Below, one piece after another: positions 3,126-20,774 of a stretch of 64,000 bases of DNA. Source of the DNA: Enterobacteria phage vB_EcoM_IME340; the sequence record MH051916. The stretch is one strand, 5' to 3'. The notes under the pieces are model-generated. The model saw only the letters and a program-made list of their open reading frames with translations, had not been told where the DNA came from and made no database searches. Position numbers and translations under genes: made by a program. Position 1 is the stretch's first letter; every line of letters begins with the position of its first letter.

Positions 3126-3126
3126 A

Positions 3127-3201: not shown

Positions 3202-3210
3202 AATTAATTT

Positions 3211-3297: not shown

Positions 3298-3301
3298 ATT
3301 T

Positions 3302-3376: not shown

Positions 3377-3380
3377 AATC

Positions 3381-3829: not shown

Positions 3830-4129
3830 GGGTCGCTACCGGTAAGTCGTCGGACTGATGTTCCCTGGAGTATAGTTTCTCCCACAGTTTTACTGTGTTC
3901 TGATTCTTTACTATCACAGCAGAAACGGCGCACAGAATTATCGATTCGAGGAAATATCTTTGCCGTAAGCCGAGTAGCGTTTTTGACGGAACGTTCGGAT
4001 ATGGTCGAGATATGGCCTTTTAAAAATATTAAGTAGCGTCAACTGCTTAATAACCGGGTTCGAATCCCGGCGTTTCGTACAAACACTTGCCTTAGCAGGT
4101 GGAACCCCGACAAGGTTGCCGCAAGGCTT
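3830..4129 (+). ncRNA. candidate structured stable RNA(s); contains a tRNA-like T-arm
   Basis: About 300 nt with no credible ORF in a dense genome; CCGGG-TTCGAAT-CCCGG T-arm motif at 4054-4072; ends at an intrinsic terminator; T4 encodes stable RNAs (species 1 and 2) beside its tRNAs. Confidence 0.35.
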
Positions 4130-4156
4130 AGCCCCGACCGAAAGGTTGGGGCTTTT
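4130..4156 (+). terminator. rho-independent terminator
   Basis: GCCCCGACC-GAAA-GGTTGGGGC hairpin followed by TTTTT. Confidence 0.7.
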
Positions 4157-4247
4157 TAGTTTGAATCACATAGAGAATGCTGTTACGGATAATAACAAAG
4201 TAATAAATAATTAATAACCAACCGATAAATTATTTCAAGGATTTTAA

Positions 4248-4811
4248 ATGAAAACCTATGCCGAGTTTTTAACCGAAGCAGCAAAATTACCATCTGAAGC
4301 AGATCTTACTAAAGTATTCTTCCACTTGGACCCAAAAGACCGCGGCGATTTTCTTAAGTGGAAAGCTAAAGCTATTGAAATGTATAACATTGATAATAGT
4401 TCTTTTACGATGAGTCAAGAAAATAAATTCAATAAAGCATTTTTCAAAATTTCTAAGAAACTGGCATCTGGCGCTCAGGTTCCTAAATCTGCCTTAGCTA
4501 CTCCTGAACGTGCACCTGTCAAAATTTCTAAGAATATGTTCGACACTAAAAAATACGTTAATGCTTTGAATAAAGCTCTTGATGCATTGGATGATGCAAA
4601 GAAGGCAGCCCGTGATCTTCAAGATGTGTACACCGATTTTGATCGTAAAACTAAAGGTTCTATTTCAAATAGCGAACGCAATAGTGTAAGTGTTTATTCT
4701 GATAGTCTTGATGTTCTTGGCGATGCGTATACTGAAATTAAAAATCGTATTAACACCGCATCTAAGCTAAAAGCTGCCGCAGAAGCTATAATAACTAAAC
4801 TAGATAAATAA
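4248..4811 (+). CDS. internal-protein-like protein (MKTYAEFLTEA N-terminus), 187 aa
   Basis: Capsid-targeting N-terminus; size similar to T4 IpIII but location differs. Confidence 0.6.
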   Translation: MKTYAEFLTEAAKLPSEADLTKVFFHLDPKDRGDFLKWKAKAIEMYNIDNSSFTMSQENKFNKAFFKISKKLASGAQVPKSALATPERAPVKISKNMFDTKKYVNALNKALDALDDAKKAARDLQDVYTDFDRKTKGSISNSERNSVSVYSDSLDVLGDAYTEIKNRINTASKLKAAAEAIITKLDK

Positions 4812-4819
4812 TTTTAAAT

Positions 4820-4845
4820 CCCTATCTAAATGATAGGGCTTTTTG
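4820..4845 (+). terminator. rho-independent terminator
   Basis: CCCTATC-TAAAT-GATAGGG hairpin followed by CTTTTT. Confidence 0.65.
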
Positions 4846-4954
4846 GTATCTAGGCCTTTCCGGGCCTCTCTAGGCATCATTTAGTTTATATCCTTTATAA
4901 TATATTATCCTACCTTTTAATTGCCCCTCCCCGCCCTAGAATTCCCCAAAACTT

Positions 4955-5051
4955 TTTAAAAATTTTTTCACAAAACTGTTTACATCCCTGTTCTTCCATG
5001 GTACTATACAACTATCAACTACTGATACAGAAAAACAACTTGGAGAATAAA
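4955..5051 (+). repeat. repeated early promoter-leader cassette (PeSL-like), copy A
   Basis: AATTTTTTCACAAAACTGTTTAC...GGTACTATACAACTATCAACT...GGAGAATAAAATG shared with copies at 20805 and 47226. Confidence 0.75.
4978..5009 (+). promoter_or_regulatory. sigma70-type early promoter
   Basis: GTTTAC 4978-4983, -10 TACTAT 5002-5007, upstream A/T-rich element. Confidence 0.65.
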
Positions 5052-5315
5052 ATGGATAATTACGGCGAACTGTTCAACTTCTTTATGAAATGTGTTTCAG
5101 AAGATTTTGGTCGTACAGTGAATGATATTAAAGTTATCGGTCCTGATCATCCGATGTTTGAAACTTACGCAGTAATGGGTAATGAAGATGGTCAGTGGTA
5201 TACTGTAAAGGTTGTGATTAACATGTTCACTGCTGAAGGTTATGTTAAACTGTCTTCTAAAGTTTACCATGATAACGATGAAATCGCAGAAGAATATTTC
5301 AATAATATGAAATAA
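5052..5315 (+). CDS. hypothetical protein
   Basis: ATG at 5052 after GGAGAATAAA; track ORF 4998 is an upstream extension through the promoter. Confidence 0.55.
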   Translation: MDNYGELFNFFMKCVSEDFGRTVNDIKVIGPDHPMFETYAVMGNEDGQWYTVKVVINMFTAEGYVKLSSKVYHDNDEIAEEYFNNMK

Positions 5316-5383
5316 TTGTGTACAAACACCAAGGACGGTGTTATTATAGACTTATCAAAACAAATACAGAAACGGAGAAATAA

Positions 5384-5560
5384 ATGACTACTTTAATTAT
5401 TTGGTTTGACGAAAATGAAGAAACATACTGCGTGAACATTGGCGAAAGCCCAATGCCAGAATTTGAATCTTCGGATAAAAACTCGGTTGTATCTTGGGCT
5501 GAAGGTTATAAAGCAGCAAAAGGCGATGTTGAAATAGTTTACAAACTATCCGGAGTATAA
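5384..5560 (+). CDS. small hypothetical protein (58 aa)
   Basis: ATG preceded by SD GGAGAAATAA; below the track length cutoff. Confidence 0.4.
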   Translation: MTTLIIWFDENEETYCVNIGESPMPEFESSDKNSVVSWAEGYKAAKGDVEIVYKLSGV

Positions 5561-5603
5561 TACTTTCATGGATTTTAAATCTTAATTAACCTAAGGAAAT
5601 ACT

Positions 5604-6197
5604 ATGAACACACTGAAGAAAATTGTTGAGTTTATTCGCACTAAACTTGGTTCTGCTATGGCTAAAAATCTATCTGTTGAAGAACAGTATACTGCCGCAG
5701 CAGCAAAACTGCTTGATAAAATTAAAGACCTAAAAACTGCTTCTGTTAAATCTATTAATGAAGAAAAACGTATTCGTGAACTTATTGTTGAAAAGAATAA
5801 ACAGGCTGAATCAAAAGAGCGTGAAATTCGCAAGCTTCTTTCCGAAGGTCAAGATGTAACAATGCATGCTAAACTCGGTTTGCTATATCGTCGAACAGCT
5901 GAACAGCTGACTACTAAAGCTGATGGTTATGCTGAAATGCGAATTGAAATCGCTAAGAAAGTAGTTGAGTTAGATGATGCTCGCCAAGAACTTGCAGTTA
6001 AATTGGAATATATCCGTGAAACTCGTGCAGCAAATGCCCTTGGAATTAGTACTGCTGATGATGTAGTTGAAATTGCAGCACTGACTAAGGTTGATATTGA
6101 AGATACTCTTGCTCGAGTTGAAACCTTTAATGGTAATATTTCTGGGGTTGAAACTACCTCTGCCGATGTTCAGGAATATATTAATTCTCTGAAATAA
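5604..6197 (+). CDS. coiled-coil protein (weak resemblance to PspA/IM30-type helical proteins)
   Basis: 197 aa, SD AAGGAAAT, strongly helical composition with heptad-like charge pattern; family assignment not established. Confidence 0.5.
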
Positions 6198-6202
6198 TGA
6201 TA

Positions 6203-6220
6203 AGGGGCTTCGGCCCCTAT
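6203..6220 (+). terminator. GC hairpin with UUCG loop (terminator/RNA-stability element)
   Basis: AGGGGC-TTCG-GCCCCT; the downstream T-run is weak. Confidence 0.45.
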
Positions 6221-6238
6221 TACTTGGAGTAAATAGGA

Positions 6239-6847
6239 ATGAAAATGCAAAGTGATTTCAATTCAATGTTTGAAGAGTTCCAAAGACAGATTGATGTTCC
6301 AGACCAATTACTACATGCTCTTAAACGCATGGCAGAAGGACGTAATTATTATTGGGGTTCTTCATATGAAACTGATGAAAGTCTTTCTGGAAGATTTTCT
6401 AGAGGTAAAAAGTCTTTAATACGTCCTGGAATACTTATTAACAGTATTGAATCAATTCATTCATTGACATGTGATTTTGATGTTGAATTTACTGATTTTG
6501 TTTCTCCTGAATGGACGGTCTGTTATTTAAACGACGATTTTGATTATCTTGGTGTTTATAGTTTAAGTGACGCATGGTTTAAACGTAATTTACAAAAGTC
6601 AAATTTATTCTATATTGATACTACAGTAAAATTTCAGGGAAAGAAATATTTCTTTACTCTTATAGTTGATTCTGAAACGAAGCATGAAAATAAACGTATT
6701 CTTAGTAAAAGAAATATCTTGAATATTGTTGATGATCTTTTTGATAAATTAGTGGAAAATCCTAATTTTGAAAGTGATTTATTACTAGAAAAATTTGTGA
6801 AGGAATGCAGAGAATATGTCAAAGCCATCAATGTATCTTCCAAGTAA
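6239..6847 (+). CDS. hypothetical protein
   Basis: 202 aa ORF with SD AGGAATG. Confidence 0.55.
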   Translation: MKMQSDFNSMFEEFQRQIDVPDQLLHALKRMAEGRNYYWGSSYETDESLSGRFSRGKKSLIRPGILINSIESIHSLTCDFDVEFTDFVSPEWTVCYLNDDFDYLGVYSLSDAWFKRNLQKSNLFYIDTTVKFQGKKYFFTLIVDSETKHENKRILSKRNILNIVDDLFDKLVENPNFESDLLLEKFVKECREYVKAINVSSK

Positions 6848-7208
6848 ACCGTTGAAGTATGAATTAAAGCGCCAGCTAATTTCTACTGATGTATTAATAG
6901 GTCCTGTTATACTTATATCATTTGTAATTCTATTGATTATTGGAGGTGTTTTAGATGTTATGACTGATATTGATTCTGGCGAAATACTTGTGTTAATGCT
7001 AATTCTTCCATTGGTAGTTCCACTTTTATTAGTACCCGTAAATTGGGTAGGATACTGGTATCAAGGAAGACATTATCGTAAACGCGTACGTGATTGGAAA
7101 GCACAGTGTAAAAAGATTAAAAAGGAACATCAGCTTAAACTTGCTGCGTATGAATTTGATGAAATTATGAAATTTGTTAAGGAATCACGATGCAAAAGCC
7201 AAAACTAA
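6816..7208 (+). CDS. membrane protein
   Basis: 130 aa ORF overlapping previous 3' end; long hydrophobic segments. Confidence 0.5.
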   Translation: MSKPSMYLPSKPLKYELKRQLISTDVLIGPVILISFVILLIIGGVLDVMTDIDSGEILVLMLILPLVVPLLLVPVNWVGYWYQGRHYRKRVRDWKAQCKKIKKEHQLKLAAYEFDEIMKFVKESRCKSQN

Positions 7209-7548
7209 ATAAAGTCAAATATTCGTTTCCTGAGTCATTTTTAATTTTTGCTGTGGCGTTGGCTGCAGCTCTTGCGGGTAGTCTTTTTGGATTGTTAATT
7301 GACTGTCTTATTTTAAACATCGACGGCACAGTAAATATAACAGAAGTTTGGAGTGAACTTCGCTATACTAAAATTATTTCATTATTTTCATTCTTTGGTA
7401 CCATGTTATATTTTCATTATGATAATTTTAAAATAAATTGGCAAAGAAAAAAAGATTACAAAATACAATTAAAAGAATATAATAGCTACATGTCTTATAT
7501 TGAAAATGAATCAATGAAAGAGTTTGTGAGTGATTGCAGGAAATTAAA

Positions 7549-7552
<4 letters not shown>
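7190..7552 (+). CDS. membrane protein
   Basis: 120 aa ORF with N-terminal hydrophobic helices. Confidence 0.5.
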
Positions 7553-8795
<1,243 letters not shown>

Positions 8796-8853
8796 TGTTT
8801 ACTTCCTCCAAGGACTTTGATACTATACATTCATCAACTACTTGGAGGAAATT

Positions 8854-9267
8854 ATGACTCGTATCAATTTAACACTTGTTTCTGAACTGACCGACCAACA
8901 TCTTATGGCTGAGTATCGTGAATTACCACGCGTATTTGGTGCAGTCCGTAAACATGTTCAAAACGGTAAACGTGTAAAGGATTTTAAAATCTCTCCAACA
9001 TTTATCTTAGGCACAGGTCACGTAACATTCTTTTATGACAAACTCGAATTTTTACGTTTACGTCAAATCGAGCTAATCGCTGAATGCTTGAAACGTGGTT
9101 TCAAAATCAAGGACACGACTGTCCAGGATATTTCCGACATCCCTGTCGAATTTCGTAATAATTATGTCCCGTCCGAAGCGTCCATTGCGATAAGTCAAGC
9201 TCGCTTAGATGAAAAAATTGCTCAACGCCCTACTTGGTACAAATACTATGGTAAATCAATTTACTAA
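8854..9267 (+). CDS. denV: endonuclease V (pyrimidine-dimer DNA glycosylase)
   Basis: [28 protein letters not shown].. matches remembered T4 DenV; SD GGAGGAAATT. Confidence 0.9.
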
Positions 9268-9273
9268 GGAAAA

Positions 9274-9534
9274 ATGAAAATGTATCAAGAATTTATCGCT
9301 GAAGCAGATGCCAAAGGCCCCAAATTTAAAGTTAAAGCTTTCGTTGGTGATGCCGAAGATTTTGGCTCATTAAAACGTAATGGGTATTTTTTCTTAGGTG
9401 GTGATGGTAAAGAAATCAACACCTATGCAAAACGTAGTGAAATTGCTTATGTTGCTGCAAGTCCTAAAGTAGATGTTGACGATATTGGATACGATTTTAA
9501 CAACTTCGGAATTATTTCTGGCGGTGAAGCTTAA
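9274..9534 (+). CDS. internal-protein-like protein (MKMYQEFIAEA N-terminus)
   Basis: 86 aa ORF with capsid-targeting N-terminus. Confidence 0.6.
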   Translation: MKMYQEFIAEADAKGPKFKVKAFVGDAEDFGSLKRNGYFFLGGDGKEINTYAKRSEIAYVAASPKVDVDDIGYDFNNFGIISGGEA

Positions 9535-9537
9535 ACG

Positions 9538-9570
9538 GTTTACGCTTAAGTATTAATATGGTATAATTAC
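9538..9570 (+). promoter_or_regulatory. sigma70-type early promoter
   Basis: GTTTAC 9538-9543, -10 TGGTATAAT ending 9568. Confidence 0.55.
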
Positions 9571-9597
9571 TCTATCAAAACAAACAAGGAAACAAAA

Positions 9598-9912
9598 ATG
9601 AAAACATATAAAGAATTTATTGCAGAATCCGCCAACCAACGCGTTGAAGGTGGTTATATTTGGATTGAACAAGTTGAGCCACCGAGCCGCACTTCTACAG
9701 GTAAATGGAAAATTACTGTTGATGGTCCTGGTGGTAAACGTAGGACTCTTAAAGAAATTAATGGGTACTATGAAGAAGCTCTTTCGGATGCAGGAACTTA
9801 CATGATGCAAATCATGATTAAAAACCCTGAAAACCGTTTTGCAGCTAAAGTCTTCCGACGCATCGGTAATAAACTTTATGACGCATACTCTAAAAACTTC
9901 CCTAAAGAATAA
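9598..9912 (+). CDS. internal-protein-like protein (MKTYKEFIAESA N-terminus)
   Basis: 104 aa ORF with capsid-targeting N-terminus. Confidence 0.6.
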   Translation: MKTYKEFIAESANQRVEGGYIWIEQVEPPSRTSTGKWKITVDGPGGKRRTLKEINGYYEEALSDAGTYMMQIMIKNPENRFAAKVFRRIGNKLYDAYSKNFPKE

Positions 9913-9938
9913 CATGAATTAAAACAATAGGAACAAAA

Positions 9939-10517
9939 ATGAAAACGTATCAAGAATTTATTGCTGAAGCTTCTGTAGTAAAGGCCAAAGGCATTAATAA
10001 GGACGAGTGGAACTATCGTGGTGGAAACGGCTTTGACCCTAAAACAGCCCCTATTGAACGATACTTAGCTACAAAAGCTTCCGATTTTAAAGCTTTCGCT
10101 TGGGAAGGACTTCGCTGGCGTACCGATTTAAATATTGAAGTTGACGGACTTAAATTTGCTCATATTGAAGATGTTGTTGCTAGTAACTTAGACGCAGCTT
10201 TTGTTAAAGCCGACAGTGATCTTCGTCGCTGGAATTTAAAACTGTTCTCTAAACAAAAAGGCCCGAAGTTTGTGCCTAAAGCCGGTAAATGGGTCATTGA
10301 TAATAAATTAGCTAAGGCTGTCAACTACGCTGGTCTTGAATTCGCCAAGCACAAATCATCATGGAAAGGTCTTGATGCAATGGCTTTCCGTAAAGAATTT
10401 GCCGATGTTATGGCTAAAGGCGGCTTTAAGGCAGAAATAGATACCTCTAAAGGTACGTTTAAGGACGCTAATGTTCAGTACGCTTACGCCGTTGCTAATG
10501 CAGCCCGTGGTAATTAA
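9939..10517 (+). CDS. internal-protein-like protein (MKTYQEFIAEA N-terminus), 192 aa
   Basis: N-terminus identical to the canonical T4 Ip targeting peptide. Confidence 0.65.
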   Translation: MKTYQEFIAEASVVKAKGINKDEWNYRGGNGFDPKTAPIERYLATKASDFKAFAWEGLRWRTDLNIEVDGLKFAHIEDVVASNLDAAFVKADSDLRRWNLKLFSKQKGPKFVPKAGKWVIDNKLAKAVNYAGLEFAKHKSSWKGLDAMAFRKEFADVMAKGGFKAEIDTSKGTFKDANVQYAYAVANAARGN

Positions 10518-10694
10518 TAAGGCCGATACTTAGGCCTATTTACATTCAAATAACATGGGAACAACCTGGACCTCATGATTCTATGAGGGATTCCCGCCAA
10601 CCTGTAATAAGGTCGAGCCCAAGTGCGGTAATGGGTAAATACAGAAATGGACAATTCACGCGCCATGGAATGGCCCAAATTTAGAGAGAATAAA

Positions 10695-11237
10695 ATGAGA
10701 ACATTTTTAACTGGTCCTTATCTATCCCTGATGAATGCTTTTACACACCATTCTGATGCTAGAGTAGAAGAAATTTGTAATAGTGGATTTTATGTACCTG
10801 ATTCGCCACATTTATTTAAAGAATACTGCACACTTCGATTAGATGGTGGACGTCAATCCGGTAAATCAACTGCAGTAACTAATTTTGCCGCTAATTGGTT
10901 GTATGACGGTGGAACAGTTATTGTTCTTTCTAATACTTCAGCTTACGCTAAAATTTCTGCGGGCCACATTAAAAAAGAATTTTCACGCTATTCTAATGAT
11001 GATATTCGATTCCGTTTATTTACTGATTCTGTCCGTAGTTTTGTTGGTAATAGAGGTAGCAAGTTCAGAGGTTTATCGCTTTCGCGGATTTTGTATATAA
11101 TCGATGAGCCTGTTAAATCTCCTGATATGGATAAAATTTACGATATTCATATTGAAACTGTGCAATACTGCTGCAATAGTAAATGTTGCATTGGTGGTAT
11201 TACTCGTCCACAGTTTTTCGTAATTGGAATGCAATGA
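10695..11237 (+). CDS. small P-loop NTPase-like protein
   Basis: ATG 10695 after GAGAATAAA; Walker A GGRQSGKST and Walker B-like ILYIIDEP. Confidence 0.55.
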   Translation: MRTFLTGPYLSLMNAFTHHSDARVEEICNSGFYVPDSPHLFKEYCTLRLDGGRQSGKSTAVTNFAANWLYDGGTVIVLSNTSAYAKISAGHIKKEFSRYSNDDIRFRLFTDSVRSFVGNRGSKFRGLSLSRILYIIDEPVKSPDMDKIYDIHIETVQYCCNSKCCIGGITRPQFFVIGMQ

Positions 11238-11563
11238 TGACAGATACGCAACTTTTCGAATATCTTTATTTTTCGCCAAAAACTATTAAAAATAAATTGG
11301 TGAATCATTTTGAAATTTTGGCAAATAACAACGTCTTGAGCGAATTTTATCCTAAGCAATACAAATTACAAAAAGGCGTATTCAAAGGATGCAGAGTTTT
11401 GTGTACTGCTCCTAATGCAAGATTAATGAATAAAATTCCATATTTTACCATGGAATTTATTGATGGACCTTTTAAAGGACTAATCACCCAAAGTTTAATG
11501 GCATATGATTCTGAGCCATTTTTAATTAAAGAACAATCTTGGATAAATTTATTTTCTAATTGA
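11234..11563 (+). CDS. hypothetical protein
   Basis: ATG 11234 overlapping previous stop; 109 aa. Confidence 0.5.
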   Translation: MMTDTQLFEYLYFSPKTIKNKLVNHFEILANNNVLSEFYPKQYKLQKGVFKGCRVLCTAPNARLMNKIPYFTMEFIDGPFKGLITQSLMAYDSEPFLIKEQSWINLFSN

Positions 11564-11569
11564 GGTTAT

Positions 11570-11932
11570 ATGAAAGCATATCAAATTCTTGAAGGCACGC
11601 ATAAAGGTACTATTTATTTTGAAGATGGTATTCAAGCACGAATTATTGTCTCTAAAACTTTTAAAGATGACTCTTTTGTAGACCCAGAAATTTTCTATGG
11701 TTTGCATGCCCGTGAAATTGAAATTGAAACACAACCTACAGTTAAAATTGAAGGTGGTCAACACCTGAACGTTAACGTTCTGCGTCGTGAAACTCTGGAA
11801 GATGCAGTTAAGCATCCGGAAAAATATCCGCAGCTGACCATCCGTGTATCCGGATATGCAGTTCGCTTTAACTCTCTGACTCCGGAACAGCAACGCGACG
11901 TTATTGCTCGTACCTTTACTGAGAGTTTGTAA
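11570..11932 (+). CDS. autonomous glycyl-radical cofactor (GrcA/YfiD-like), chimeric
   Basis: C-terminal ~60 aa (..[60 protein letters not shown]) match E. coli GrcA as I recall it; 3' half uses host-like codons (CTG, CGT, CCG). Confidence 0.8.
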
Positions 11933-12153
11933 TGGCAAAGATAATTATTGAAGGTTCTGAAGATGTGCTAAATGCTTTCGCCGAGTGGTTTAGTAATTCA
12001 GGCGAACAGCAATTTAATGAAGCGTGGAACATGGGTGATATTAGTGGAATTTATCCTACGACAGAAATTTCTGTTCAAGGATATGGAATTCATGAACCTA
12101 TTCGTTTAGTTGAATATGATTTGGGAACAGGTGAGGAAGTAAAATATGATTGA
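11932..12153 (+). CDS. hypothetical protein
   Basis: 73 aa ORF, start overlaps previous stop. Confidence 0.45.
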   Translation: MAKIIIEGSEDVLNAFAEWFSNSGEQQFNEAWNMGDISGIYPTTEISVQGYGIHEPIRLVEYDLGTGEEVKYD

Positions 12154-12412
12154 AGACATTAAAGGTTATAAGCCACATACTGACGATAAAATCAGTAAAG
12201 TGAATGCTATCAAAGACGCTGAAGTTCGTTTAGGACTTATCTTTGATGCTTTATACGATGAATTCTGGGAAGCACTAGATAATTGTGAAGACTGTGAATT
12301 CGCGAAGAATTATGCTGAAAGCCTCGATCAGTTAACTATTGCTAAAACGAAACTCAAAGAAGCCAGTATGTGGGCTTGTCGTGCTGTGTTCCAACCAGAG
12401 GAAAAATATTAA
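12146..12412 (+). CDS. hypothetical protein
   Basis: 88 aa ORF. Confidence 0.45.
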
Positions 12413-12690
12413 TGGCTCAATTAAGCGCAGGGTTTGGTTATGAGTATTATACTGCCCCTCGTCGTGTATCTGTTGCTCCTAAGAAAATTCAAAGTCTTGA
12501 TGACTTCCAGGAAGTAGTTCGTAAAGCTTTCCAGGACTATGCGAGTTATCTTAAAGAAGATTCACAGGACTGTCTCGAAGAAGATGAAATTGCTTACTAT
12601 GAGCAGCGTCTTGAACAGCTCAAAAACCTACATGAGGTTCGTGCAGAAGTTACAAAGTCTATGAATAAATTGATTAGATTTAAAGAATAA
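12412..12690 (+). CDS. hypothetical protein
   Basis: ATG 12412 overlaps previous stop (TAATG); 92 aa. Confidence 0.5.
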
Positions 12691-12692
12691 CT

Positions 12693-12724
12693 GTTTACTT
12701 TTCCTCTTGACTGTGGTATAATTT
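12693..12724 (+). promoter_or_regulatory. sigma70-type early promoter
   Basis: GTTTAC 12693-12698, -10 TGGTATAAT ending 12722. Confidence 0.6.
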
Positions 12725-12749
12725 TTCTATCAGTTAAGAGGAGAATAAC

Positions 12750-13211
12750 ATGACTATCAACACAGAAGTTTTTATCCGTCGAAATAAGCTTCGTCGTCAC
12801 TTTGAGTCGGAGTTTCGTCAAATTAACAATGAGATTCATGAGGCATCAAAAGCAGCAGGAGTCTCATCGTTTCATCTAAAATATTCTCAACATCTTCTTG
12901 ATCGTGCAATTCAACGGGAGATTGATGAGACATATGTTTTTGAATTATTCCACAAAATAAAAGACCATGTTTTAGAAGTTAATGAATTCCTGAGTATGCC
13001 TCCGCGTCCTGACATTGATGAGGATTTTATTGATGGAGTTGAATATCGCCCTGGACGTTTAGAAATTACAGATGGAAATCTTTGGCTTGGATTTACGGTT
13101 TGTAAGCCTAATGAGAAGTTCAAAAACCCGTCACTTCAATGCAGGATGGCAATTATCAACAGTCGTCGTTTACCAGGAAAGGCTTCTAAAGCAGTAATTA
13201 AAACTCAATGA
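12750..13211 (+). CDS. regB: endoribonuclease RegB
   Basis: 153 aa; MTINTEVFIRRNKLRRHFESEF.. matches remembered T4 RegB. Confidence 0.85.
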   Translation: MTINTEVFIRRNKLRRHFESEFRQINNEIHEASKAAGVSSFHLKYSQHLLDRAIQREIDETYVFELFHKIKDHVLEVNEFLSMPPRPDIDEDFIDGVEYRPGRLEITDGNLWLGFTVCKPNEKFKNPSLQCRMAIINSRRLPGKASKAVIKTQ

Positions 13212-13218
13212 GGTAAGC

Positions 13219-13764
13219 ATGAGAAAAGCACTACTCGCTGGTCTATTGGCCATTTCAATGATGGCACATAGCTCCGAGCATACTTTCAGTAATGTCCAAC
13301 TCGATAACATGCGTTACGCATATCAATTCGGGGAACAATTTTCTAAGGATGGAAAATATAAAACACACAAAAATATCCACAAGAGTGGATTAGGTCATAT
13401 AATGGCTGCTATTTTATGGCAAGAAAGCTCTGCCGGAGTTAATTTAAAATCTAAACCAAAGCATCATGCCTATGGAATGTTCCAAAATTATTTGCCGACC
13501 ATGCGAGCAAGAGTTAAGGAACTTGGTTATAATATGACCGATGCTGAAATAAAAAGAATGTTGAATAAACGGTCCAATTCAGCTTCCTGGGCGTACATTG
13601 AACTTTCTTATTGGTTAAATATACATAAGGGCGATATAAGAAAGGCAATATCCTCTTATAATTCGGGATGGAATGTTAAAGCAGGTTCTAAATATGCTTC
13701 TGAAGTCCTAGAAAAGGCTAACTACCTTAAAAATAATAAACTGTTGGAAATAGTAAATGACTAA
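13219..13764 (+). CDS. secreted protein with lytic-transglycosylase-like motif (position of T4 vs.1)
   Basis: N-terminal signal peptide; AILWQESS motif resembles transglycosylase catalytic region. Confidence 0.5.
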   Translation: MRKALLAGLLAISMMAHSSEHTFSNVQLDNMRYAYQFGEQFSKDGKYKTHKNIHKSGLGHIMAAILWQESSAGVNLKSKPKHHAYGMFQNYLPTMRARVKELGYNMTDAEIKRMLNKRSNSASWAYIELSYWLNIHKGDIRKAISSYNSGWNVKAGSKYASEVLEKANYLKNNKLLEIVND

Positions 13765-14104
13765 AATTTTGGTTTTATGTATAGGATTAATTTCATTTTC
13801 TGCTTATGCGTCAGCAGATACATCATATACTGAAATTAGGGAGTATGTGAACCGCACTGCAGCGGATTATTGTGGGAAAAATAAAGCATGCCAAGCTGAA
13901 TTTGCGCAGAAATTAATATATGCATATAAAGACGGAGAAAGAGATAAATCAAGCAGATACAAAAACGATACATTATTAAAACGATATGCTAAAAAGTGGA
14001 ATACCCTAGAATGTTCAGTTGCGGAGGAAAAAGATAAAGCCGCTTGTCATTCAATGGTTGACCGTTTAGTAGATTCTTATAATCGAGGATTGAGTACTAG
14101 ATGA
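13757..14104 (+). CDS. secreted small protein (position/size consistent with T4 vs)
   Basis: 115 aa with signal peptide; several Cys. Confidence 0.45.
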   Translation: MTKILVLCIGLISFSAYASADTSYTEIREYVNRTAADYCGKNKACQAEFAQKLIYAYKDGERDKSSRYKNDTLLKRYAKKWNTLECSVAEEKDKAACHSMVDRLVDSYNRGLSTR

Positions 14105-14580
14105 TTGTAAAATATATCAAGGGCGATATTGTCGCCCTCTTTCTTGAAGGTAATATTATTGCGCACGGGTGTAACTGTTTTCATACAATGGGCAGTGGTG
14201 TAGCTGGTCAATTAGCAAGAGCCTATCCCAAAATTTTAGAAATAGATAAAACCACTACTGAGTACGGTTCTCGTGATAAATTAGGCGATATGTCTATTGT
14301 TTTTAAACATAAACCTAATGGGTTTGGCATATGTTATAACTTGTATACGCAATACGAACCAGGTCCTAATCTTGATTATGGTGCTTTAGTAAACTGCATG
14401 ATAGAATTAAATCTACAGGCAGAAACCCTTTTGTTTAAACCGGTAATTTACATTCCACGCATAGGTTGTGGTATTGCTGGCGGCGATTGGGATAAGGTTT
14501 CTAAATTAATCGACATGTTTACTCCTGATATTGATTTAATAGTGGTGGATTATGAAAGTACATTACCCACATCCGTTTGA
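14101..14580 (+). CDS. macro-domain protein (ADP-ribose binding/hydrolase fold)
   Basis: Motifs GDIV..AHGCNCFHTMGSGVAGQLARAYP and PRIGCGIAGGDW are typical of macro domains. Confidence 0.7.
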   Translation: MIVKYIKGDIVALFLEGNIIAHGCNCFHTMGSGVAGQLARAYPKILEIDKTTTEYGSRDKLGDMSIVFKHKPNGFGICYNLYTQYEPGPNLDYGALVNCMIELNLQAETLLFKPVIYIPRIGCGIAGGDWDKVSKLIDMFTPDIDLIVVDYESTLPTSV

Positions 14581-14764
14581 TCCTAAAAACAAAGCAGTAA
14601 TTATTCGTCAATGGGAACGCATTTGCCGTACTAAATGTCCAATTAATAGTCCACATGATGTAGATAAAGACTACATTGGAACATTCGTTGAATATACATT
14701 TATTGATAAGAAAGGTCGTAAACAGCATGTAGAAGAATACTGCGTAAAGGTGACATGGTTATGA
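14552..14764 (+). CDS. small Cys-containing protein
   Basis: 70 aa ORF overlapping previous 3' end. Confidence 0.4.
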   Translation: MKVHYPHPFDPKNKAVIIRQWERICRTKCPINSPHDVDKDYIGTFVEYTFIDKKGRKQHVEEYCVKVTWL

Positions 14765-14967
14765 GCCAAACTAGTATTCTTAAAAATGCCCACTGTGAAA
14801 AGTGTAAGTGGCCGGTTGTTTTTGCTTTATGTAACGATGAAATGGCTTGTGATTTCGATTATTGGTGCTATTGTTCTAATAAAGGATGCATCAATCATAA
14901 AGGTGAAGGATTTTATTCGGGATTTTATCCTTATCCAGATTTCGTTAAAGAAGGTAAACCGAAATGA
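14755..14967 (+). CDS. small Cys-rich (probable zinc-binding) protein
   Basis: 70 aa with CEKCKW..C..C..CYC..GC pattern. Confidence 0.45.
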   Translation: MVMSQTSILKNAHCEKCKWPVVFALCNDEMACDFDYWCYCSNKGCINHKGEGFYSGFYPYPDFVKEGKPK

Positions 14968-15135
14968 ATAGTTCTGAGTTACAATATGAAGTGTTACGTG
15001 AACTTGATAATTTAATTGAACTCGCTGTTAATAAAGGTTTTGCCATTGGAATTGGTCAAAAAGATACTGATCATTTAACTGTGGAAATATTTAAGCAAAA
15101 GCGAATTATTTTAAAACTTCTGGAAATTAATATAT
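14964..15135 (+). CDS. small hypothetical protein (56 aa)
   Basis: ATG overlapping previous stop; below track cutoff. Confidence 0.35.
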
Positions 15136-15319
15136 GAGCCTAAGCAAAGAACAAAAAGACAAACTCTTTTCTCTTATCCACGAAATTATGGATAAAAATA
15201 GTGAATTGGAAAAAGTTTGTAATGAATGCGGTCCTTTTAGCGCAAATGAATATGAAGAACTTTCCAAAGAATTTGATAATAAAGAACAAGAACTCATTGA
15301 TTATATAAATTCCTTATGA
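15134..15319 (+). CDS. small helical protein, member of tandem paralog family
   Basis: 61 aa; shares S.EQK..LF.L..EI pattern with 15316, 17315, 17521, 18043. Confidence 0.5.
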   Translation: MSLSKEQKDKLFSLIHEIMDKNSELEKVCNECGPFSANEYEELSKEFDNKEQELIDYINSL

Positions 15320-15504
15320 TTACTCGCGAACAAAAGAACGAAATATTATTTTTAGTTGGTGAAATTATTAGTTTAGAAAAGGATTTGTCTTTTGAAATAT
15401 CTTCTGAATATGGAGATGCCGAAACATATTACGAATTAGTAAAATCTATCGATAAAGCTGAAAATGATTTAGAAACATATTTAGAAAATTTAACTAAGGA
15501 CTAA
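15316..15504 (+). CDS. small helical protein, member of tandem paralog family
   Basis: 62 aa; paralogous pattern. Confidence 0.5.
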   Translation: MITREQKNEILFLVGEIISLEKDLSFEISSEYGDAETYYELVKSIDKAENDLETYLENLTKD

Positions 15505-15505
15505 G

Positions 15506-16087
15506 ATGGCGAGTTTAATTTTTACTTATGCAGCAATGAATGCTGGAAAATCTGCTTCTCTTTTGACTGCTGCGCATAATTATAAAGAACGTGGAATGAG
15601 TGTATTAGTTCTTAAGCCTGCTATTGATACTCGCGATTCTGTCTGTGAAGTCGTTTCTCGCATTGGAATTAAACAGGAAGCGAATATTATTACAGATGAT
15701 ATGGATATTTTCGAGTTCTATAAATGGGCTGAAGCACAAAAAGATATTCATTGCGTATTTGTAGATGAAGCCCAGTTTTTAAAAACTGAACAAGTGCATC
15801 AATTGAGTCGAATTGTTGATACATATAATGTTCCTGTTATGGCTTATGGATTAAGGACTGATTTCGCTGGAAAATTGTTTGAAGGTTCTAAAGAACTTTT
15901 AGCGATTGCAGATAAACTTATTGAACTAAAGGCAGTTTGTCATTGCGGCAAAAAAGCGATTATGACAGCTCGATTGATGGAAGATGGAACACCAGTTAAA
16001 GAAGGTAATCAAATCTGTATTGGTGATGAAATTTATGTTTCTTTGTGTAGAAAACACTGGAACGAATTAACTAAAAAGCTCGGTTAG
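15506..16087 (+). CDS. tk: thymidine kinase
   Basis: 193 aa; P-loop AAMNAGKS, Zn-binding CHCGKKA; matches remembered T4 Tk. Confidence 0.9.
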   Translation: MASLIFTYAAMNAGKSASLLTAAHNYKERGMSVLVLKPAIDTRDSVCEVVSRIGIKQEANIITDDMDIFEFYKWAEAQKDIHCVFVDEAQFLKTEQVHQLSRIVDTYNVPVMAYGLRTDFAGKLFEGSKELLAIADKLIELKAVCHCGKKAIMTARLMEDGTPVKEGNQICIGDEIYVSLCRKHWNELTKKLG

Positions 16088-16096
16088 TGCAAAAGT

Positions 16097-16104
16097 TATA
16101 AATA
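16097..16104 (+). promoter_or_regulatory. late promoter motif TATAAATA
   Basis: Exact TATAAATA 26 bp upstream of next gene. Confidence 0.45.
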
Positions 16105-16129
16105 GGTTTATCTAACTAAAGGGGTATAT

Positions 16130-16342
16130 ATGCTACAATTAACTGAAAAGCAACTTCGCAATCTTACTGTGCTTCAATTAGATGAAATTCGTAGGGAAGT
16201 TGGAAATATCATTTCAGCTTTGCGTCGAGAAGTATCACTCAACCAATCTCCGGCAGACTATACTAGATTGCGAAATTTTGAAAAATACCTTGATAAAGTT
16301 AAGGCCGTGCATCGGCATAAAGTAAATACAGGACAAAAATGA
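16130..16342 (+). CDS. hypothetical protein (rI.1 position)
   Basis: 70 aa ORF. Confidence 0.5.
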
Positions 16343-16354
16343 TAGGAGGCCTTT

Positions 16355-16648
16355 ATGGCCTTAAAAGCAACGGCACTTTTTGCCACGCTAGGATTGTCAT
16401 TTGTTTTATCTCCATCGATTGAAGCGAATGTCGATCCTCATTTTGATAAATTTATGGAATCTGGTATTAGGCACGTTTATACACTTTTTGAAAATAAAAG
16501 CGTAGAATCGTCTGAACAATTCTATAGTTTTATGAGAACGACCTATAAAAATGACCCGTGCTCTTCTGATTTTGAATGTATAGAACGAGGCGCGGAGATG
16601 GCACAATCATACGCTAGAATTATGAACATTAAATTGGAGACTGAATGA
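16355..16648 (+). CDS. rI: lysis-inhibition regulator RI (antiholin)
   Basis: 97 aa; MALKATALFA..LGLSFVLSPSIEANVDPHFDKFMESG.. matches remembered T4 RI. Confidence 0.9.
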   Translation: MALKATALFATLGLSFVLSPSIEANVDPHFDKFMESGIRHVYTLFENKSVESSEQFYSFMRTTYKNDPCSSDFECIERGAEMAQSYARIMNIKLETE

Positions 16649-17031
16649 AATTCAGCGACTTTTCACAAAGTGGAAAACCTTCAAAGGCAGATGAATACTT
16701 AGGTTTATTAATGGCTGCACAAGCTTATTTTCATTCTGCACATTTTGAAACTAAAAGTTATGCTAGACACAAAGCATACGATTTTATTTTCTCCGAGTTG
16801 CCAGATTTAATTGATAAATTTGGTGAGCAATATTTGGGGTATTCTGGTAGAAAATACACACCTTCAATTCCAGATGCCAGTAAACTTCCTACCGACACAA
16901 TTAAAATGATTGATCGCATACTAGACCAATCTAACAGCATTTATAAAGAAATGCCTCCAGCCATCCAAAGCACGATAGATGATATTACTGGAATGTTTTA
17001 CCAGAGTAAGTATCTTCTTTCCCTCGAATAA
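16645..17031 (+). CDS. hypothetical protein (rI.-1 position)
   Basis: 128 aa ORF overlapping rI stop. Confidence 0.55.
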
Positions 17032-17035
17032 CATT

Positions 17036-17058
17036 AGTCTCCTTCGGGAGACTTTTTT
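17036..17058 (+). terminator. rho-independent terminator
   Basis: GTCTCC-TTCG-GGAGAC hairpin followed by TTTTTT. Confidence 0.75.
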
Positions 17059-17068
17059 CATTTTACCG

Positions 17069-17101
17069 GTTTACTTTCCGTTTGAGCTGTGGTACTATAC
17101 A
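17069..17101 (+). promoter_or_regulatory. sigma70-type early promoter (shares GGTACTATACAACTATC core with the repeated cassettes)
   Basis: GTTTAC 17069-17074, -10 TACTAT 17094-17099. Confidence 0.6.
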
Positions 17102-17126
17102 ACTATCGGATAAAGAGGAGAACATC

Positions 17127-17315
17127 ATGAAAATTGAAGCACTCAATCAAGAAGGAAATATCTACGTCATCATTAACGGTGATTTTTTCGTCGACATGGA
17201 TGAAGTTACCAGTGAAGAACTTGAAGAACTTCTTAAGAAACGTTATGATATGTGTGATGAAGCTGCAACTCATATGGCGTGTGCAATATTCTCTCTTTCA
17301 TATGTGGTGGAATAA
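17127..17315 (+). CDS. small acidic protein
   Basis: ATG 17127 after AGAGGAGAACATC; 62 aa. Confidence 0.5.
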
Positions 17316-17518
17316 TGATTAGTATCGAACAAGCAGATAAAATTAAAGAATTGGTAGCTTTAATTCGCAAAGCAGATGAGGAACTTAGTGACTTTGCTTG
17401 GTTTTCGGCAGGCATTGCAAATAAAGGTATTGAAGAATTTGAAGCTAAAGTTGATAATGCTGTAGAAGCTTTAGATATGTTTCTTGATGAAATTATCGAT
17501 CACAATACGAGAGTTTAA
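17315..17518 (+). CDS. small helical protein, tandem paralog family
   Basis: ATG overlapping previous stop (TAATG); 67 aa. Confidence 0.5.
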   Translation: MISIEQADKIKELVALIRKADEELSDFAWFSAGIANKGIEEFEAKVDNAVEALDMFLDEIIDHNTRV

Positions 17519-17520
17519 GT

Positions 17521-17715
17521 ATGCTGACACACGAACAGTTTGAAAAAATCATTAAATTAGCACGTGATGTTGAAATAGATTCATATCAATTAGCAGTTGA
17601 GCATTGTGAAGGATATTCATACGAAGGTATAGCAGCAGCTAAAAGAGATTTGGATAAATCTAAAGCTAAGTTAGTTCAATATCTTGAAATGATTAGGTGG
17701 AATAATGAAAACTGA
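17521..17715 (+). CDS. small helical protein, tandem paralog family
   Basis: 64 aa; MLTHEQFEKIIKLA.. Confidence 0.5.
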   Translation: MLTHEQFEKIIKLARDVEIDSYQLAVEHCEGYSYEGIAAAKRDLDKSKAKLVQYLEMIRWNNEN

Positions 17716-17878
17716 AAAGCAGATGTTTTTAATGAAGCTAATTGAAGAATATGCTAATGCAGTTTCTGACTATGAGTGTTCTTCTCGTGAAAGGGGTATA
17801 GCTTTCGCAAAAGAAGAAATGAAAATCATGGTTGATGCTCACACAAAGCTTCAGAATTTTATTGAAAACGTCATTTAA
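17705..17878 (+). CDS. small helical protein, tandem paralog family (57 aa)
   Basis: ATG 17705 overlapping previous 3' end; below track cutoff. Confidence 0.4.
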   Translation: MKTEKQMFLMKLIEEYANAVSDYECSSRERGIAFAKEEMKIMVDAHTKLQNFIENVI

Positions 17879-17880
17879 CG

Positions 17881-17912
17881 GTTTACAAGTTGGCAAGGTT
17901 ATGGTATAGTAA
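17881..17912 (+). promoter_or_regulatory. sigma70-type early promoter
   Basis: GTTTAC 17881-17886, -10 TATAGT 17905-17910. Confidence 0.55.
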
Positions 17913-18042
17913 TCTTGTCAACTGCTAAGGAGAAGAGAATGAAAATTTTGTTTGTTGTGTATGTGATGATTCAATATAATTACCCAATGTTTACGTATAA
18001 TTTGGTGAACAACATTATTGATATTATTCAAAGGAGTATGTA

Positions 18043-18228
18043 ATGACAAGTGAGCAGGCTTTTAAATTAAGAGAATTAATTGAGACGTATAGTAGAGCTG
18101 TTCATACATCAACAATTATTGATGAATCAGCTTTCTCCGGACATGCTAACAAGATTAAATACAAAACTCTTATGGAAGAAGCTAAAGTAAATCTTGATTC
18201 TTATATTGAAACTTTAATTGGTAAATAA
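18043..18228 (+). CDS. small helical protein, tandem paralog family
   Basis: 61 aa; MTSEQAFKLRELIETY.. Confidence 0.5.
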   Translation: MTSEQAFKLRELIETYSRAVHTSTIIDESAFSGHANKIKYKTLMEEAKVNLDSYIETLIGK

Positions 18229-18229
18229 T

Positions 18230-18772
18230 ATGAAAGCTGTAATTGAAACAACTGATTTGTTCGGTGACCTGGTTATCGAAAAACGTGATAATGTATACGT
18301 TCTGACGCAGGAAGACGATAATATTACTATTCTTCCTATGGAACTGGCTGCGATTTTATCTTATGCTCCCTCAGGAGTTACCGGTGTAACTAATATTACA
18401 GGCGACCTCCAAGTTCGTTTTTATCGTGGCCTTTACGGCGGTAATATTGAAACTGAATTTATGTGTCTTTCTATCAACAATTGGGCAACATTCGTTACCA
18501 AGGTGAAAGAATTCTTGGAATCTGAAACAATCGAAACACCCGAAAAGGCTAAACTTCAATGGGCTAAAGATCGCGGTGCTAGCATTATTAATCCAGTAGC
18601 TGCAAATTATACTACGACTTTGGATGTCAAGACTTCTTATGAAGATGGCGATGTCGTACTTGTTCGCCAAATTGATGATTCTCGAGCACATATTGTCACA
18701 TTTACCAAAGACGAAGCTATTGCACTAAAGACTTATCTTGATTCTGTCATTCCAACTATGATTTCAAAGTGA
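18230..18772 (+). CDS. hypothetical protein, paralog of 18779-19300
   Basis: ATG 18230; C-terminus ..KTYLDSVIPTMISK resembles ..IKYLTTVTPSMKG of next gene. Confidence 0.55.
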   Translation: MKAVIETTDLFGDLVIEKRDNVYVLTQEDDNITILPMELAAILSYAPSGVTGVTNITGDLQVRFYRGLYGGNIETEFMCLSINNWATFVTKVKEFLESETIETPEKAKLQWAKDRGASIINPVAANYTTTLDVKTSYEDGDVVLVRQIDDSRAHIVTFTKDEAIALKTYLDSVIPTMISK

Positions 18773-18778
18773 GGAAAT

Positions 18779-19300
18779 ATGTTTATTTCAAGTGGAAGTG
18801 GTTTAATTCGCGTTGAATTTAAAAATGACATCTTTCTTATTCAAGGAGATGATATTATTAAAATGAGTTATGACGAAATCAAGAAAATTTGTCATGCTCT
18901 TGAAAGTCATGGAAAAGTGAACGCTGTTATTGATATTGGCGATTTATGGGTGACACTTTATGAAGTATCCGAAGGATTTAACATTGAAGATGAAAATAAC
19001 ATTTTAGCTATTGATAAAAGAACTGATTTGTTTGATGTATTAAAAGCCTATGAGCAGTCAAATGGCGGAAGAAAAGCTGTATTGATTTATCAAAAACCGC
19101 ATTCATGTGGAACTGCTTCAATCATTTCAAATATTGAAGGCGAAGTTGATACTTATATGTGTGTTTTAAAAGCTGGTGGTGACCGTCATCCGGATTTTAT
19201 TTCTATTCGTCAAAACAATGAAGAAATTTCATTGTCAAAATCAGAAGCTGAAGCTATGATTAAGTATTTAACAACCGTTACGCCTTCAATGAAAGGATAA
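18779..19300 (+). CDS. hypothetical protein, paralog of 18230-18772
   Basis: 173 aa ORF with SD GAGGAAATATG. Confidence 0.55.
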   Translation: MFISSGSGLIRVEFKNDIFLIQGDDIIKMSYDEIKKICHALESHGKVNAVIDIGDLWVTLYEVSEGFNIEDENNILAIDKRTDLFDVLKAYEQSNGGRKAVLIYQKPHSCGTASIISNIEGEVDTYMCVLKAGGDRHPDFISIRQNNEEISLSKSEAEAMIKYLTTVTPSMKG

Positions 19301-19302
19301 TT

Positions 19303-19764
19303 ATGATTATTAATGAAAACTCTTGGCACTATAAATTATTCAAATTGTTTAACGATGAATGGCAACGACCTAAGACACTATGCGCATATTTTTGGTCTAT
19401 TGCCATACCTACATTTTTCGTTTCTATTTTTGGGTGTGCTATACTCGTAGGGTTAACAATTATTTGTGCAGAAAGCCTACAACGTTGGCTTATTTTCGGT
19501 AGTTTATGGACTCTTCTTCCATCGGCATTTATACTTGCGCTTTTGGTTGTTTTACTTATTATCGGTTCATTTGTTATTCCTGCACATTTGCGTGAAAAAT
19601 ATAAAGATTATAAATGGAAAAAGGATTATGCTTTACACGTAGAAAATATTGATAGGGCGTATAAAGGTTTACCTCCTATTCAACCCAAGAAATCGATTAT
19701 CGTTGAATTTTTAAAAGCTCGTAAAGCTAAAGTATGTCCTGTTATTGAATATAAGGCTGAATGA
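19303..19764 (+). CDS. membrane protein
   Basis: 153 aa with three hydrophobic helices. Confidence 0.55.
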   Translation: MIINENSWHYKLFKLFNDEWQRPKTLCAYFWSIAIPTFFVSIFGCAILVGLTIICAESLQRWLIFGSLWTLLPSAFILALLVVLLIIGSFVIPAHLREKYKDYKWKKDYALHVENIDRAYKGLPPIQPKKSIIVEFLKARKAKVCPVIEYKAE

Positions 19765-20774
19765 TGAAAACAGTAATGAAAAGCTATTTTGGTAGTCATC
19801 TTTATGGAATTTCTACTCCAGAATCTGATGTAGATTTTAAAGAAATCTTTGTTCCTCCTGCTCGCGATATTCTTATTGGAAACGTCAAAGAGCACATGAG
19901 TAAAAACACTAACAACACATCATCTAAAAACACTAAAGATGATATTGACCATGAACTATACAGTCTTAAGTATTTCTTTAAATTAGCAGCAGATGGTGAA
20001 ACTGTAGCATTGGATATGCTTCACACTCCACCTGAACTAGTGGTTAAATCTGATTTGCCTGATGTGTGGAAGTTTATTCAAGACAACCGTTCTCGTTTTT
20101 ATACGACTAACATGAAATCCTATTTAGGATATGTCCGCAAGCAAGCTTCTAAATATGGTGTTAAGGGTTCTCGTTTGGCCGCATTGCGTGATGTATTGAA
20201 AGTAGTTAATCAAATCCCCGATCAGTGGGTTGATTACCGAGAAGATGGAACACAAGGACAACGTCGTACTAAAATTGCAGATATTAAACACCGTCTTCCA
20301 GAAAACGAATTCTGCGAATGGGTATTTCATAATCATGAGAAAACAGGCCCGCAAACGTTCTATACTGTGTTGGGTCGTAAATATCAGACAACGCTTTCTC
20401 TTATTGAGCTTAAGCAGTCTTTGAATAAACTTGATGCTGAATATGGTGAACGCGCTCGTAAGGCTGAAGCTAATGAGGGCATTGACTGGAAAGCTCTGAG
20501 TCATGCTTGCCGTGGTGGACTCCAACTATTGGAAATTTACAAAACTGGTGACTTAGTCTATCCACTTCAAGACGCTCCATTTATTCTCGACGTGAAGTTG
20601 GGTAAACATCCATTTAAAACTGTTCAAGAGTTTTTGGAAGATGTGGTCGATCAAGTAGAAGCAGCATCCATTGAAGCTTCTAAGAACGGTATGCAGCAAA
20701 AAGTAGACATGGGTTTCTGGGATGACTTCCTTGAGAGGGTTTATCTTGAAAACCACCGAAGTTATTATAAATGA
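19761..20774 (+). CDS. Pol-beta-superfamily nucleotidyltransferase-like protein
   Basis: N-terminal GS-x10-DVD motif (YFGSHLYGISTPESDVDFKEIFV) followed by a helical C-terminal domain; 337 aa. Confidence 0.6.
   Translation: MMKTVMKSYFGSHLYGISTPESDVDFKEIFVPPARDILIGNVKEHMSKNTNNTSSKNTKDDIDHELYSLKYFFKLAADGETVALDMLHTPPELVVKSDLPDVWKFIQDNRSRFYTTNMKSYLGYVRKQASKYGVKGSRLAALRDVLKVVNQIPDQWVDYREDGTQGQRRTKIADIKHRLPENEFCEWVFHNHEKTGPQTFYTVLGRKYQTTLSLIELKQSLNKLDAEYGERARKAEANEGIDWKALSHACRGGLQLLEIYKTGDLVYPLQDAPFILDVKLGKHPFKTVQEFLEDVVDQVEAASIEASKNGMQQKVDMGFWDDFLERVYLENHRSYYK

Follow-up and report, generated by a model that had tools for sequence, protein, structure and literature searches.

At positions 11570–11932 of a DNA stretch from Enterobacteria phage vB_EcoM_IME340 (sequence record MH051916; the window, meaning the whole 64,000 nucleotides analysed), a small gene changes character halfway along, from an AT-rich and phage-like 5′ half to a 3′ half resembling a gene of the bacterial host. 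How did host-type DNA come to lie inside a phage gene, and which enzyme does the product serve? A sequence-only reading of the locus had suggested recent capture from host grcA, and rescue by the product of either the phage enzyme NrdD or host PFL after oxygen damage. The near letter-for-letter identity of the 3′ half to grcA apparently reflects T4-like phages repeatedly copying the host chromosome. The features needed for the argument are listed below; the two halves are referred to as the head and the tail.

11570–11932, plus strand: ORF orthologous to vs.6/Y06I, 120 amino acids, occupying exactly the span first noted
11562–11565, plus strand: GAGG, Shine-Dalgarno-like, 4–5 nt before the ATG, as read from the sequence
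11183–11563: upstream vs.7-like ORF, whose stop codon overlaps the GAGG of vs.6
11570–11747, plus strand: phage-type 5′ half (residues 1–59 and the first base of codon 60), AT-rich
11748–11925, plus strand: host-templated tract, equivalent to E. coli grcA codons 68–125
11843–11857, plus strand: RVSGY glycyl-radical motif, residues 92–96
11852–11854, plus strand: GGA codon of the predicted radical residue Gly95, aligning with GrcA Gly102 and PflB Gly734
11926–11934, plus strand: phage-type 3′ end, codons AGT TTG (AGC CTG in the host) and stop TAA

The encoded protein is identical to Vs.6 of both T4 and T2 at 118 of 120 residues (98.3%), and the surrounding gene order (vs.7, vs.6, vs.5, vs.4, vs.3, regB) is that of T4, and likewise of T2. 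It matches PHROG 1209 over residues 1–120 (E = 1.5e-62), with neighbours belonging to phrog_2049 and phrog_1986. Judged by sequence and gene order, the ORF is T4 gene vs.6 (Y06I), the known gene for a glycyl-radical spare part. The first reading had mentioned a T4 counterpart; a T4 protein has indeed been described, but what lies here is not a counterpart so much as the T4 gene itself. Positions 4000–24000 of the window are ~96% identical to vB_EcoM-UFV13 and similar phages, placing it in Tequatrovirus. At megablast level vs.6 is found in >700 phage records, and a protein-level homologue occurs in ~1,590, T5-like and jumbo phages included. Both the gene and the biochemistry of its product are thus already known, and the chimeric structure is also present in T4 itself, in T2 and in hundreds of related phages, so that nothing about it is particular to this window. 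In the record of T4 strain 147 (KJ477685) vs.6 lies at 1501–1863 without a CDS annotation.

Profile searches bore out the proposal that the product is a GrcA-type spare part. Pfam PF01228 (Gly_radical) matched residues 60–101 (67.1 bits, cut-off 22.2; E = 2.2e-18), and the structure of YfiD (PDB 6OWR) was matched with E = 1.1e-41. The 120-residue frame is bounded by a stop on each side, making the product a stand-alone protein of the ~14-kDa class without a catalytic barrel. The top NCBIfam match was TIGR04365 (‘spare_glycyl’; residues 20–120), at 154.5 bits under the equivalog cut-off of 170 bits; the cut-off is missed because the head of the protein is divergent, a divergence that could alter the choice of partner.

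The vs.6 stop codon overlaps the ATG of the downstream vs.5-like ORF (TAATG), and the gene looks co-transcribed with, and translationally coupled to, both of its neighbours. A promoter and terminator scan of 10400–13300 gave counts no better than those in shuffled sequence, with no convincing element adjoining vs.6. An Rfam search of 9800–12600 (E ≤ 0.1) returned zero matches, and a functional RNA in that interval was rejected as the reason for nucleotide conservation. Two further observations were made nearby. Two genes 3′ of vs.6, at the position of T4 vs.4, an 88-residue ORF (12146–12412, plus strand) matches Pfam Acb2_Tad1_hairpin (1.2e-19) and is a predicted homologue of the anti-CBASS nucleotide sponge Acb2. 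On the 5′ side, a GC-rich patch (10520–10690; GC 0.44–0.49) runs from the end of an IpIII-like ORF (9939–10517) into the first ~40 nt of a 196-residue ORF (10647–11237); it includes a terminator-like hairpin at 10520–10537 and has no Rfam match.

We then located the host-like DNA by nucleotide alignment. Residues 61–120, RVSGY included, are identical to E. coli GrcA 68–127, as the sequence-only reading had proposed for the C-terminal ~60 residues. At the DNA level, 11748–11932 matches grcA in all 5,426 of the 5,426 complete E. coli genomes searched, the best match being 181/185 (97.8%; E = 4e-83), a close and not a distant similarity. In pairwise alignment the longest perfect run against E. 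coli grcA extends for 145 nt (11748–11892), and the four mismatches (11893, 11923, 11926 and 11927) are all synonymous and fall within the last 40 nt; over 11748–11925 the E. coli allele L001 differs only at 11893 and 11923. Just upstream of 11748 the identity collapses, standing at ~50% in the head, and it is here that the suspected sharp junction is found. Composition and codon use shift at the same place, giving the non-uniform profile expected of a chimeric gene: GC rises from 0.32 in the head to 0.48 in the tail and GC3 from 0.15 to 0.40. The tail lies in the top 0.9% of 180-nt segments of the 64 kb for GC, and the GC jump at the junction in the top 0.4%. E. coli-type codons (CTG, CCG) are confined to the 3′ half within vs.6; there they account for 5/6 Leu and 3/3 Pro residues, against 8% and 14% in the long ORFs of the window. 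The first reading was accurate on each of these points: an AT-rich, phage-like 5′ half, host-like codons in the 3′ half, and a host-derived sequence starting abruptly.

When the remaining 61.9 kb of the window was compared by megablast with all of the E. coli genomes, no chromosomal match common across strains was obtained; the host-like tract is unique within this phage stretch. Two lesser matches were recorded. The window has a tRNA cluster at 2629–3456 (plus strand; 10 genes: Gln, Leu, Gly, Pro, Ser, Thr, Met, Tyr, Asn, Arg), and 255 E. coli genomes have plasmids of ~100 kb, possibly phage-plasmids, with tRNA arrays 82–89% identical to its Tyr–Asn part (~3206–3362). In addition, 53 bp at ~20792–20844 are 96% identical to the chromosome of a single strain among the 5,426 genomes, E. 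coli BE104, where the stretch may be an engineered or phage-derived insert.

The tract also has a structural counterpart. It encodes the structured glycyl-radical domain, comprising a beta strand, the radical loop and the C-terminal helix. In YfiD, according to NMR work cited in PMC8683613, residues 61–127 form the structured radical domain, and residues 1–60 are disordered and aid both binding to cleaved PFL and activation. The host-templated tract and that structured domain are nearly coextensive.

Was this host segment joined to an unrelated phage sequence, as capture of a fragment would imply? The head on its own had no match in NCBIfam. However, profile–profile comparison (hhalign) of 10 phage heads with 10 bacterial GrcA heads gave a probability of 96.5% and E = 9.4e-10 over 61 columns at 25% identity, so at profile level the AT-rich head is a diverged N-terminal half of GrcA. 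The head being homologous to that of GrcA, the gene is an old phage-lineage homologue of grcA in which the 3′ half was replaced; the event is a gene-conversion replacement of that half and not the joining of host DNA to an ORF of other origin, and the capture model fails in this form. Homologues from Karamvirus, T5-like phages and jumbo phages have phage-like tails, with GC like that of the head and without a host-like tract; their tails are saturated at synonymous sites against every host (pS ~0.8), with pN ~0.1. The 5′ limit of the tract in vs.6 is the point at which nucleotide homology between phage and host starts. At the 3′ limit, in the last two codons, the phage-like bases were presumably kept by selection on the vs.5 start.

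To identify the donor, the vs.6 tail was compared with 80 bacterial grcA genes from different species. The best scores were those of E. coli (181/186) and another Escherichia species (177), followed by Citrobacter amalonaticus (166), with the remainder at 164 or less. The grcA DNA scores differ in this way although the bacterial GrcA proteins are nearly identical. The synonymous difference between the T4 tail and the E. coli allele (0.04) is at the level found between two E. coli alleles, compared with ~0.3 between E. coli and Citrobacter grcA, 0.4 for Klebsiella and 0.55 for Salmonella. By the criterion of synonymous divergence, the donor of the tail is Escherichia, and the age of the tract lies within species-level diversity. 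Since pflB DNA is only ~80% identical to the phage tail, the donor was grcA and not pflB.

The direction of transfer could be read from the host gene. E. coli grcA is uniform in composition (GC3 0.37 in the head and 0.42 in the tail), and its head and tail alike diverge from their counterparts in other enterobacteria to a degree that follows taxonomy, from which it follows that the sequence moved from host to phage. The opposite proposal, that E. coli acquired the 3′ half of grcA from a phage or that the tract is host contamination or misassembly, conflicts with these properties of the host gene and with the codons of the tract, which are of E. coli and not phage type. As an artefact the tract would have to recur in >700 independently sequenced phage genomes and also in the 8-kb T4 GenBank record X04567, which is separate from whole-genome assemblies. 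A rare E. coli allele, the 2013C type, has two variants in common with some phages, and for this allele an occasional phage-to-host conversion is conceivable. For the tract as a whole the reverse or artefactual explanation is already refuted, and we assign it a negligible probability.

We next asked whether the tract derives from one transfer or from many. Three sites at which E. coli alleles differ were sampled in the tract (11851 C/A, 11854 A/T and 11905 T/C), and at all three the phages vary too, between the same bases, an apparent sharing that is inflated by the host alleles compared having partly been picked as best phage matches. One of these sites, 11854 (GGA/GGT), lies within the codon of the radical residue Gly95. 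This phage and its nearest relative, SP21535, have A at 11854 and T at 11905, like the 2013C-type allele, which is rare (~1.8% of E. coli genomes); phage contig L099 has A at 11851, like the RM10042-type allele of E. coli; and the majority of the remaining phages have SK1144-type bases at the sampled sites. Between 11748 and the position equivalent to 11925, T4 does not differ from the SK1144-type allele at a single base (100% identity); over 173 nt, 374 phage records reach at least 99% identity with this allele, and several of them 100%.

A single capture in an ancestor of Tequatrovirus and Mosigvirus, followed by vertical descent and with the Klebsiella case described below as an isolated second event, was weighed against these data. 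It would account for the 5′ junction falling at one same base in every T-even examined, and Mosigvirus EP32a, with 10–13 mostly AT-ward synonymous changes, looks as an ageing insert should. Phages show each of the four possible pairings of the 11854 and 11905 variants, and under a single capture a few variants could have been shuffled by phage–phage recombination. However, tails are far less diverged between genera than heads (pS 0.067 in the tail and 0.305 in the head for Tequatrovirus against a Mosigvirus-like phage), many phages are identical over 173 nt to a living E. coli allele, and each of the three sampled host polymorphisms recurs in phages. The 3′ junction is not constant, the limit of the tract varying between phages at sites 11926, 11927 and 11929, and the fixed 5′ junction is equally predicted by recurrent conversion, with homology starting there. 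A single ancestral capture is accordingly unlikely in our estimate, although phage–phage recombination after few transfers, or an occasional phage-to-host transfer, could have contributed to the pattern.

Phages of another host genus were consistent with recurrent conversion. In Klebsiella phage Shinkou (Jiaodavirus, of the same subfamily) GC is 0.55 in the tail and 0.35 in the head. The Jiaodavirus tail is 96.0% identical to grcA of K. pneumoniae (the DNA of which was taken from PLSDB records labelled ‘plasmid’), 92% to that of K. aerogenes and 87% to that of E. coli, and its 3′ junction lies ~15 nt further upstream than that of the T-evens. On this pattern of identity, the Jiaodavirus tail is an independent, host-specific replacement. 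Several of the PLSDB ‘plasmid’ records are whole chromosomes, and grcA of K. aerogenes NCTC10006 (LR134122) is annotated as truncated, with an apparent frameshift.

Across the phages, tail identity is bimodal: tails are either identical to a host at 93% or more of their bases or lack host likeness. Taken as a whole, the evidence favours exchange between host and phage on repeated occasions and in several phage lineages over a single event here. Of the recent capture suggested from the sequence, the recency stands, the tract lying within the diversity of the species E. coli, and the single event in this phage gives way to repeated exchange.

Additional phage groups gave less uniform results. 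The tails of Slopekvirus KLB13 and Pseudotevenvirus specify the same protein as the GrcA of their respective host groups (Klebsiella-type LLDAVEH; E. coli/Citrobacter-type LEDAVKH), with pN = 0, whereas their synonymous sites are saturated in comparison with each of the host genes sampled. These tails may reflect an old conversion followed by amelioration, or selection for matching the host; conversion alone is insufficient as an explanation of their pattern. The grcA homologue of a 91-kb IMG/VR contig (L116) ends in a ~70-nt patch near-identical to Haemophilus parainfluenzae grcA; neither of its sibling contigs, L114 or L115, has this patch, which may represent another host-templated conversion, in an unrelated phage group. 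Two candidates were rejected: IMG/VR contig L124, considered as a phage tail templated by Yersinia, has a full-length, bacterial-type GrcA and is probably host DNA on a prophage contig, and phage EC.W14-2 (116 kb), considered as a T5-like phage with an E. coli-identical tail, is a Tequatrovirus record.

How might a phage repeatedly copy its host? T4 recombines efficiently with homologous cytosine DNA inside the cell, which is the basis of marker rescue and of engineering with plasmid donors, and plasmid donors are reported to have been used in one T4 engineering study. Early in infection T4 breaks up the DNA of its host, whose degradation should limit, without abolishing, recombination with it. 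In the mechanism that we propose, the starting point would be an old phage-lineage homologue of grcA, and in T-evens infecting E. coli the 3′ ~180 nt, specifying the conserved, structured radical domain, would have been replaced through homologous recombination with chromosomal grcA. The conversion would be bounded on the 5′ side by the start of homology and on the 3′ side by the last codons, which overlap the vs.5 start. A first, rare homeologous event between sequences ~75% identical would have created a perfect target of 180 nt, after which the host-identical tract could easily be reconverted by host fragments, in a self-reinforcing manner, and be renewed from whichever alleles the current host population holds. 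The bimodal tail identity is proposed to arise because the perfect target left by the first event eases later conversion. The same process would operate in T4-like phages of Klebsiella with Klebsiella grcA. With modest confidence, we lean towards the radical domain being in concerted evolution with the current enterobacterial host, by one-way conversion dependent on the T4 recombination machinery and fragments of host DNA.

To return to the enzyme that the product serves, YfiD and T4 Y06I are described in PMC8683613, citing Wagner et al. 2001, as the only two validated spare parts; PFL-AE installs the radical on them, and they return PFL to activity after oxygen has cleaved it at Gly734. The tail of vs.6 aligns with PflB 697–759 (E = 4.6e-26); in the phmmer alignment ~78% of the 63 residues are identical by visual count. 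Because the protein is 98% identical to Y06I and its radical domain does not differ from that of GrcA, we infer that it would likewise rescue PFL. We know of no in vivo phenotype for vs.6.

NrdD, the other client put forward at the outset, is encoded in the window at the position given for it (29878–31695), together with NrdG (31692–32162). In that case the product of vs.6, with its radical installed by NrdG, would stand in for the part of phage NrdD lost when oxygen cuts the enzyme at its glycyl radical. Involvement in nucleotide metabolism was an early speculation (Nolan et al. 2006), spare parts for other glycyl-radical enzymes are conceivable (Andorfer et al. 2021), and in some jumbo phages and an Aeromonas phage a grcA homologue lies between or beside nrdD and nrdG. 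However, BLASTP of vs.6 against the window's NrdD gave E = 6.3 with the radical loop unaligned, and an NrdD-like radical domain was not found; the radical domain is instead that of GrcA and is closest to PflB 697–759. Moreover, vs.6 tracks the grcA allele of the host and not nrdD, from which it is 18 kb distant in this phage, and the Y06I activity reported in PMC8683613, citing Wagner 2001, is with PFL and PFL-AE. As the BLASTP result was empty and synteny with nrdD and nrdG is limited to some jumbo and Aeromonas phages, NrdD was rejected as the primary client, and we regard it as highly improbable in that role; the suggested rescue of oxygen-damaged NrdD finds no support in the sequence. The phages listed for adjacency of a grcA homologue, nrdD and nrdG are Salmonella jumbo phage PHA46 (homologue at 295–657) and the records L122 and L143, and vs.6 adjoins nrdG in Aeromonas phage PX29. 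The tails of these nrdD/nrdG-adjacent jumbo and Aeromonas homologues are phage-like and not host-templated.

With PFL as the client, the host activase PflA would place the radical on Gly95 during anaerobic or microaerobic infection, and the C-terminal domain would plug into host PFL cleaved by oxygen at Gly734, restoring its activity. The supply of acetyl-CoA and ATP could then continue after the phage has shut off host expression, that of host grcA included; a phage copy of the spare part makes sense because T4 shuts off host transcription. It is less likely that the head, which is specific to the phage, gives the host-identical radical domain another client or another timing than those of host GrcA. 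Taken together, we consider it probable that vs.6 encodes a spare part for PFL and is an old phage homologue whose 3′ half has repeatedly been converted by host DNA.

As an object vs.6 is ordinary; its evolutionary behaviour is under-described and experimentally tractable. Among the papers covered by a literature search, none was found to describe a vs.6–grcA DNA mosaic or recurrent conversion, and an earlier mention elsewhere is possible. If the conversion reading is true, the synonymous sites of the tract record the recent host species of a virulent phage, and even the host allele, and in metagenomes the tract might serve to trace the hosts of T4-like phages. It would also represent natural, measurable gene flow from host to phage, among phages whose own DNA is modified and which destroy the genome of the host. 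If conversion is recurrent, the locus offers a simple experimental system for the rate at which a phage copies from its host. On the same reading, the working domain being the host's own suggests why a constant fit to the client is maintained.

Compared with known systems, the gene is nearest to T4 Vs.6 (Y06I), with which it shares length, neighbours, chimeric DNA and 5′ junction. The present protein and that of T4 differ by two substitutions in the head (D33 versus E, T54 versus P), and the tails by four synonymous changes, of which A at 11854 and T at 11905 in this phage match the rarer E. coli allele. E. coli GrcA (YfiD, PDB 6OWR) has the same small stand-alone architecture and a head homologous at profile level; the vs.6 head is ~25% identical to it and 7 residues shorter, and unlike GrcA, vs.6 is a gene of a virulent phage expressed from phage signals. 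PflB 697–759 (PDB 1H16, 2PFL), the piece that the spare part replaces, has the same fold element and RVSGY loop, but in PflB, unlike vs.6, the radical domain is fused to a 700-residue catalytic barrel.

The closest evolutionary analogue is cyanophage psbA, likewise a phage copy of a metabolic gene that exchanges patches with the host gene. Sullivan and colleagues are said to have described, in 2006, cyanophage psbA and psbD as host-derived metabolic genes that undergo intragenic recombination with host copies and form compositional mosaics. Unlike psbA and psbD, vs.6 confines the exchange to one domain of a very small gene, reaches up to 100% identity with living host alleles, and resides in T-even phages with hmC-DNA that degrade the DNA of their host.
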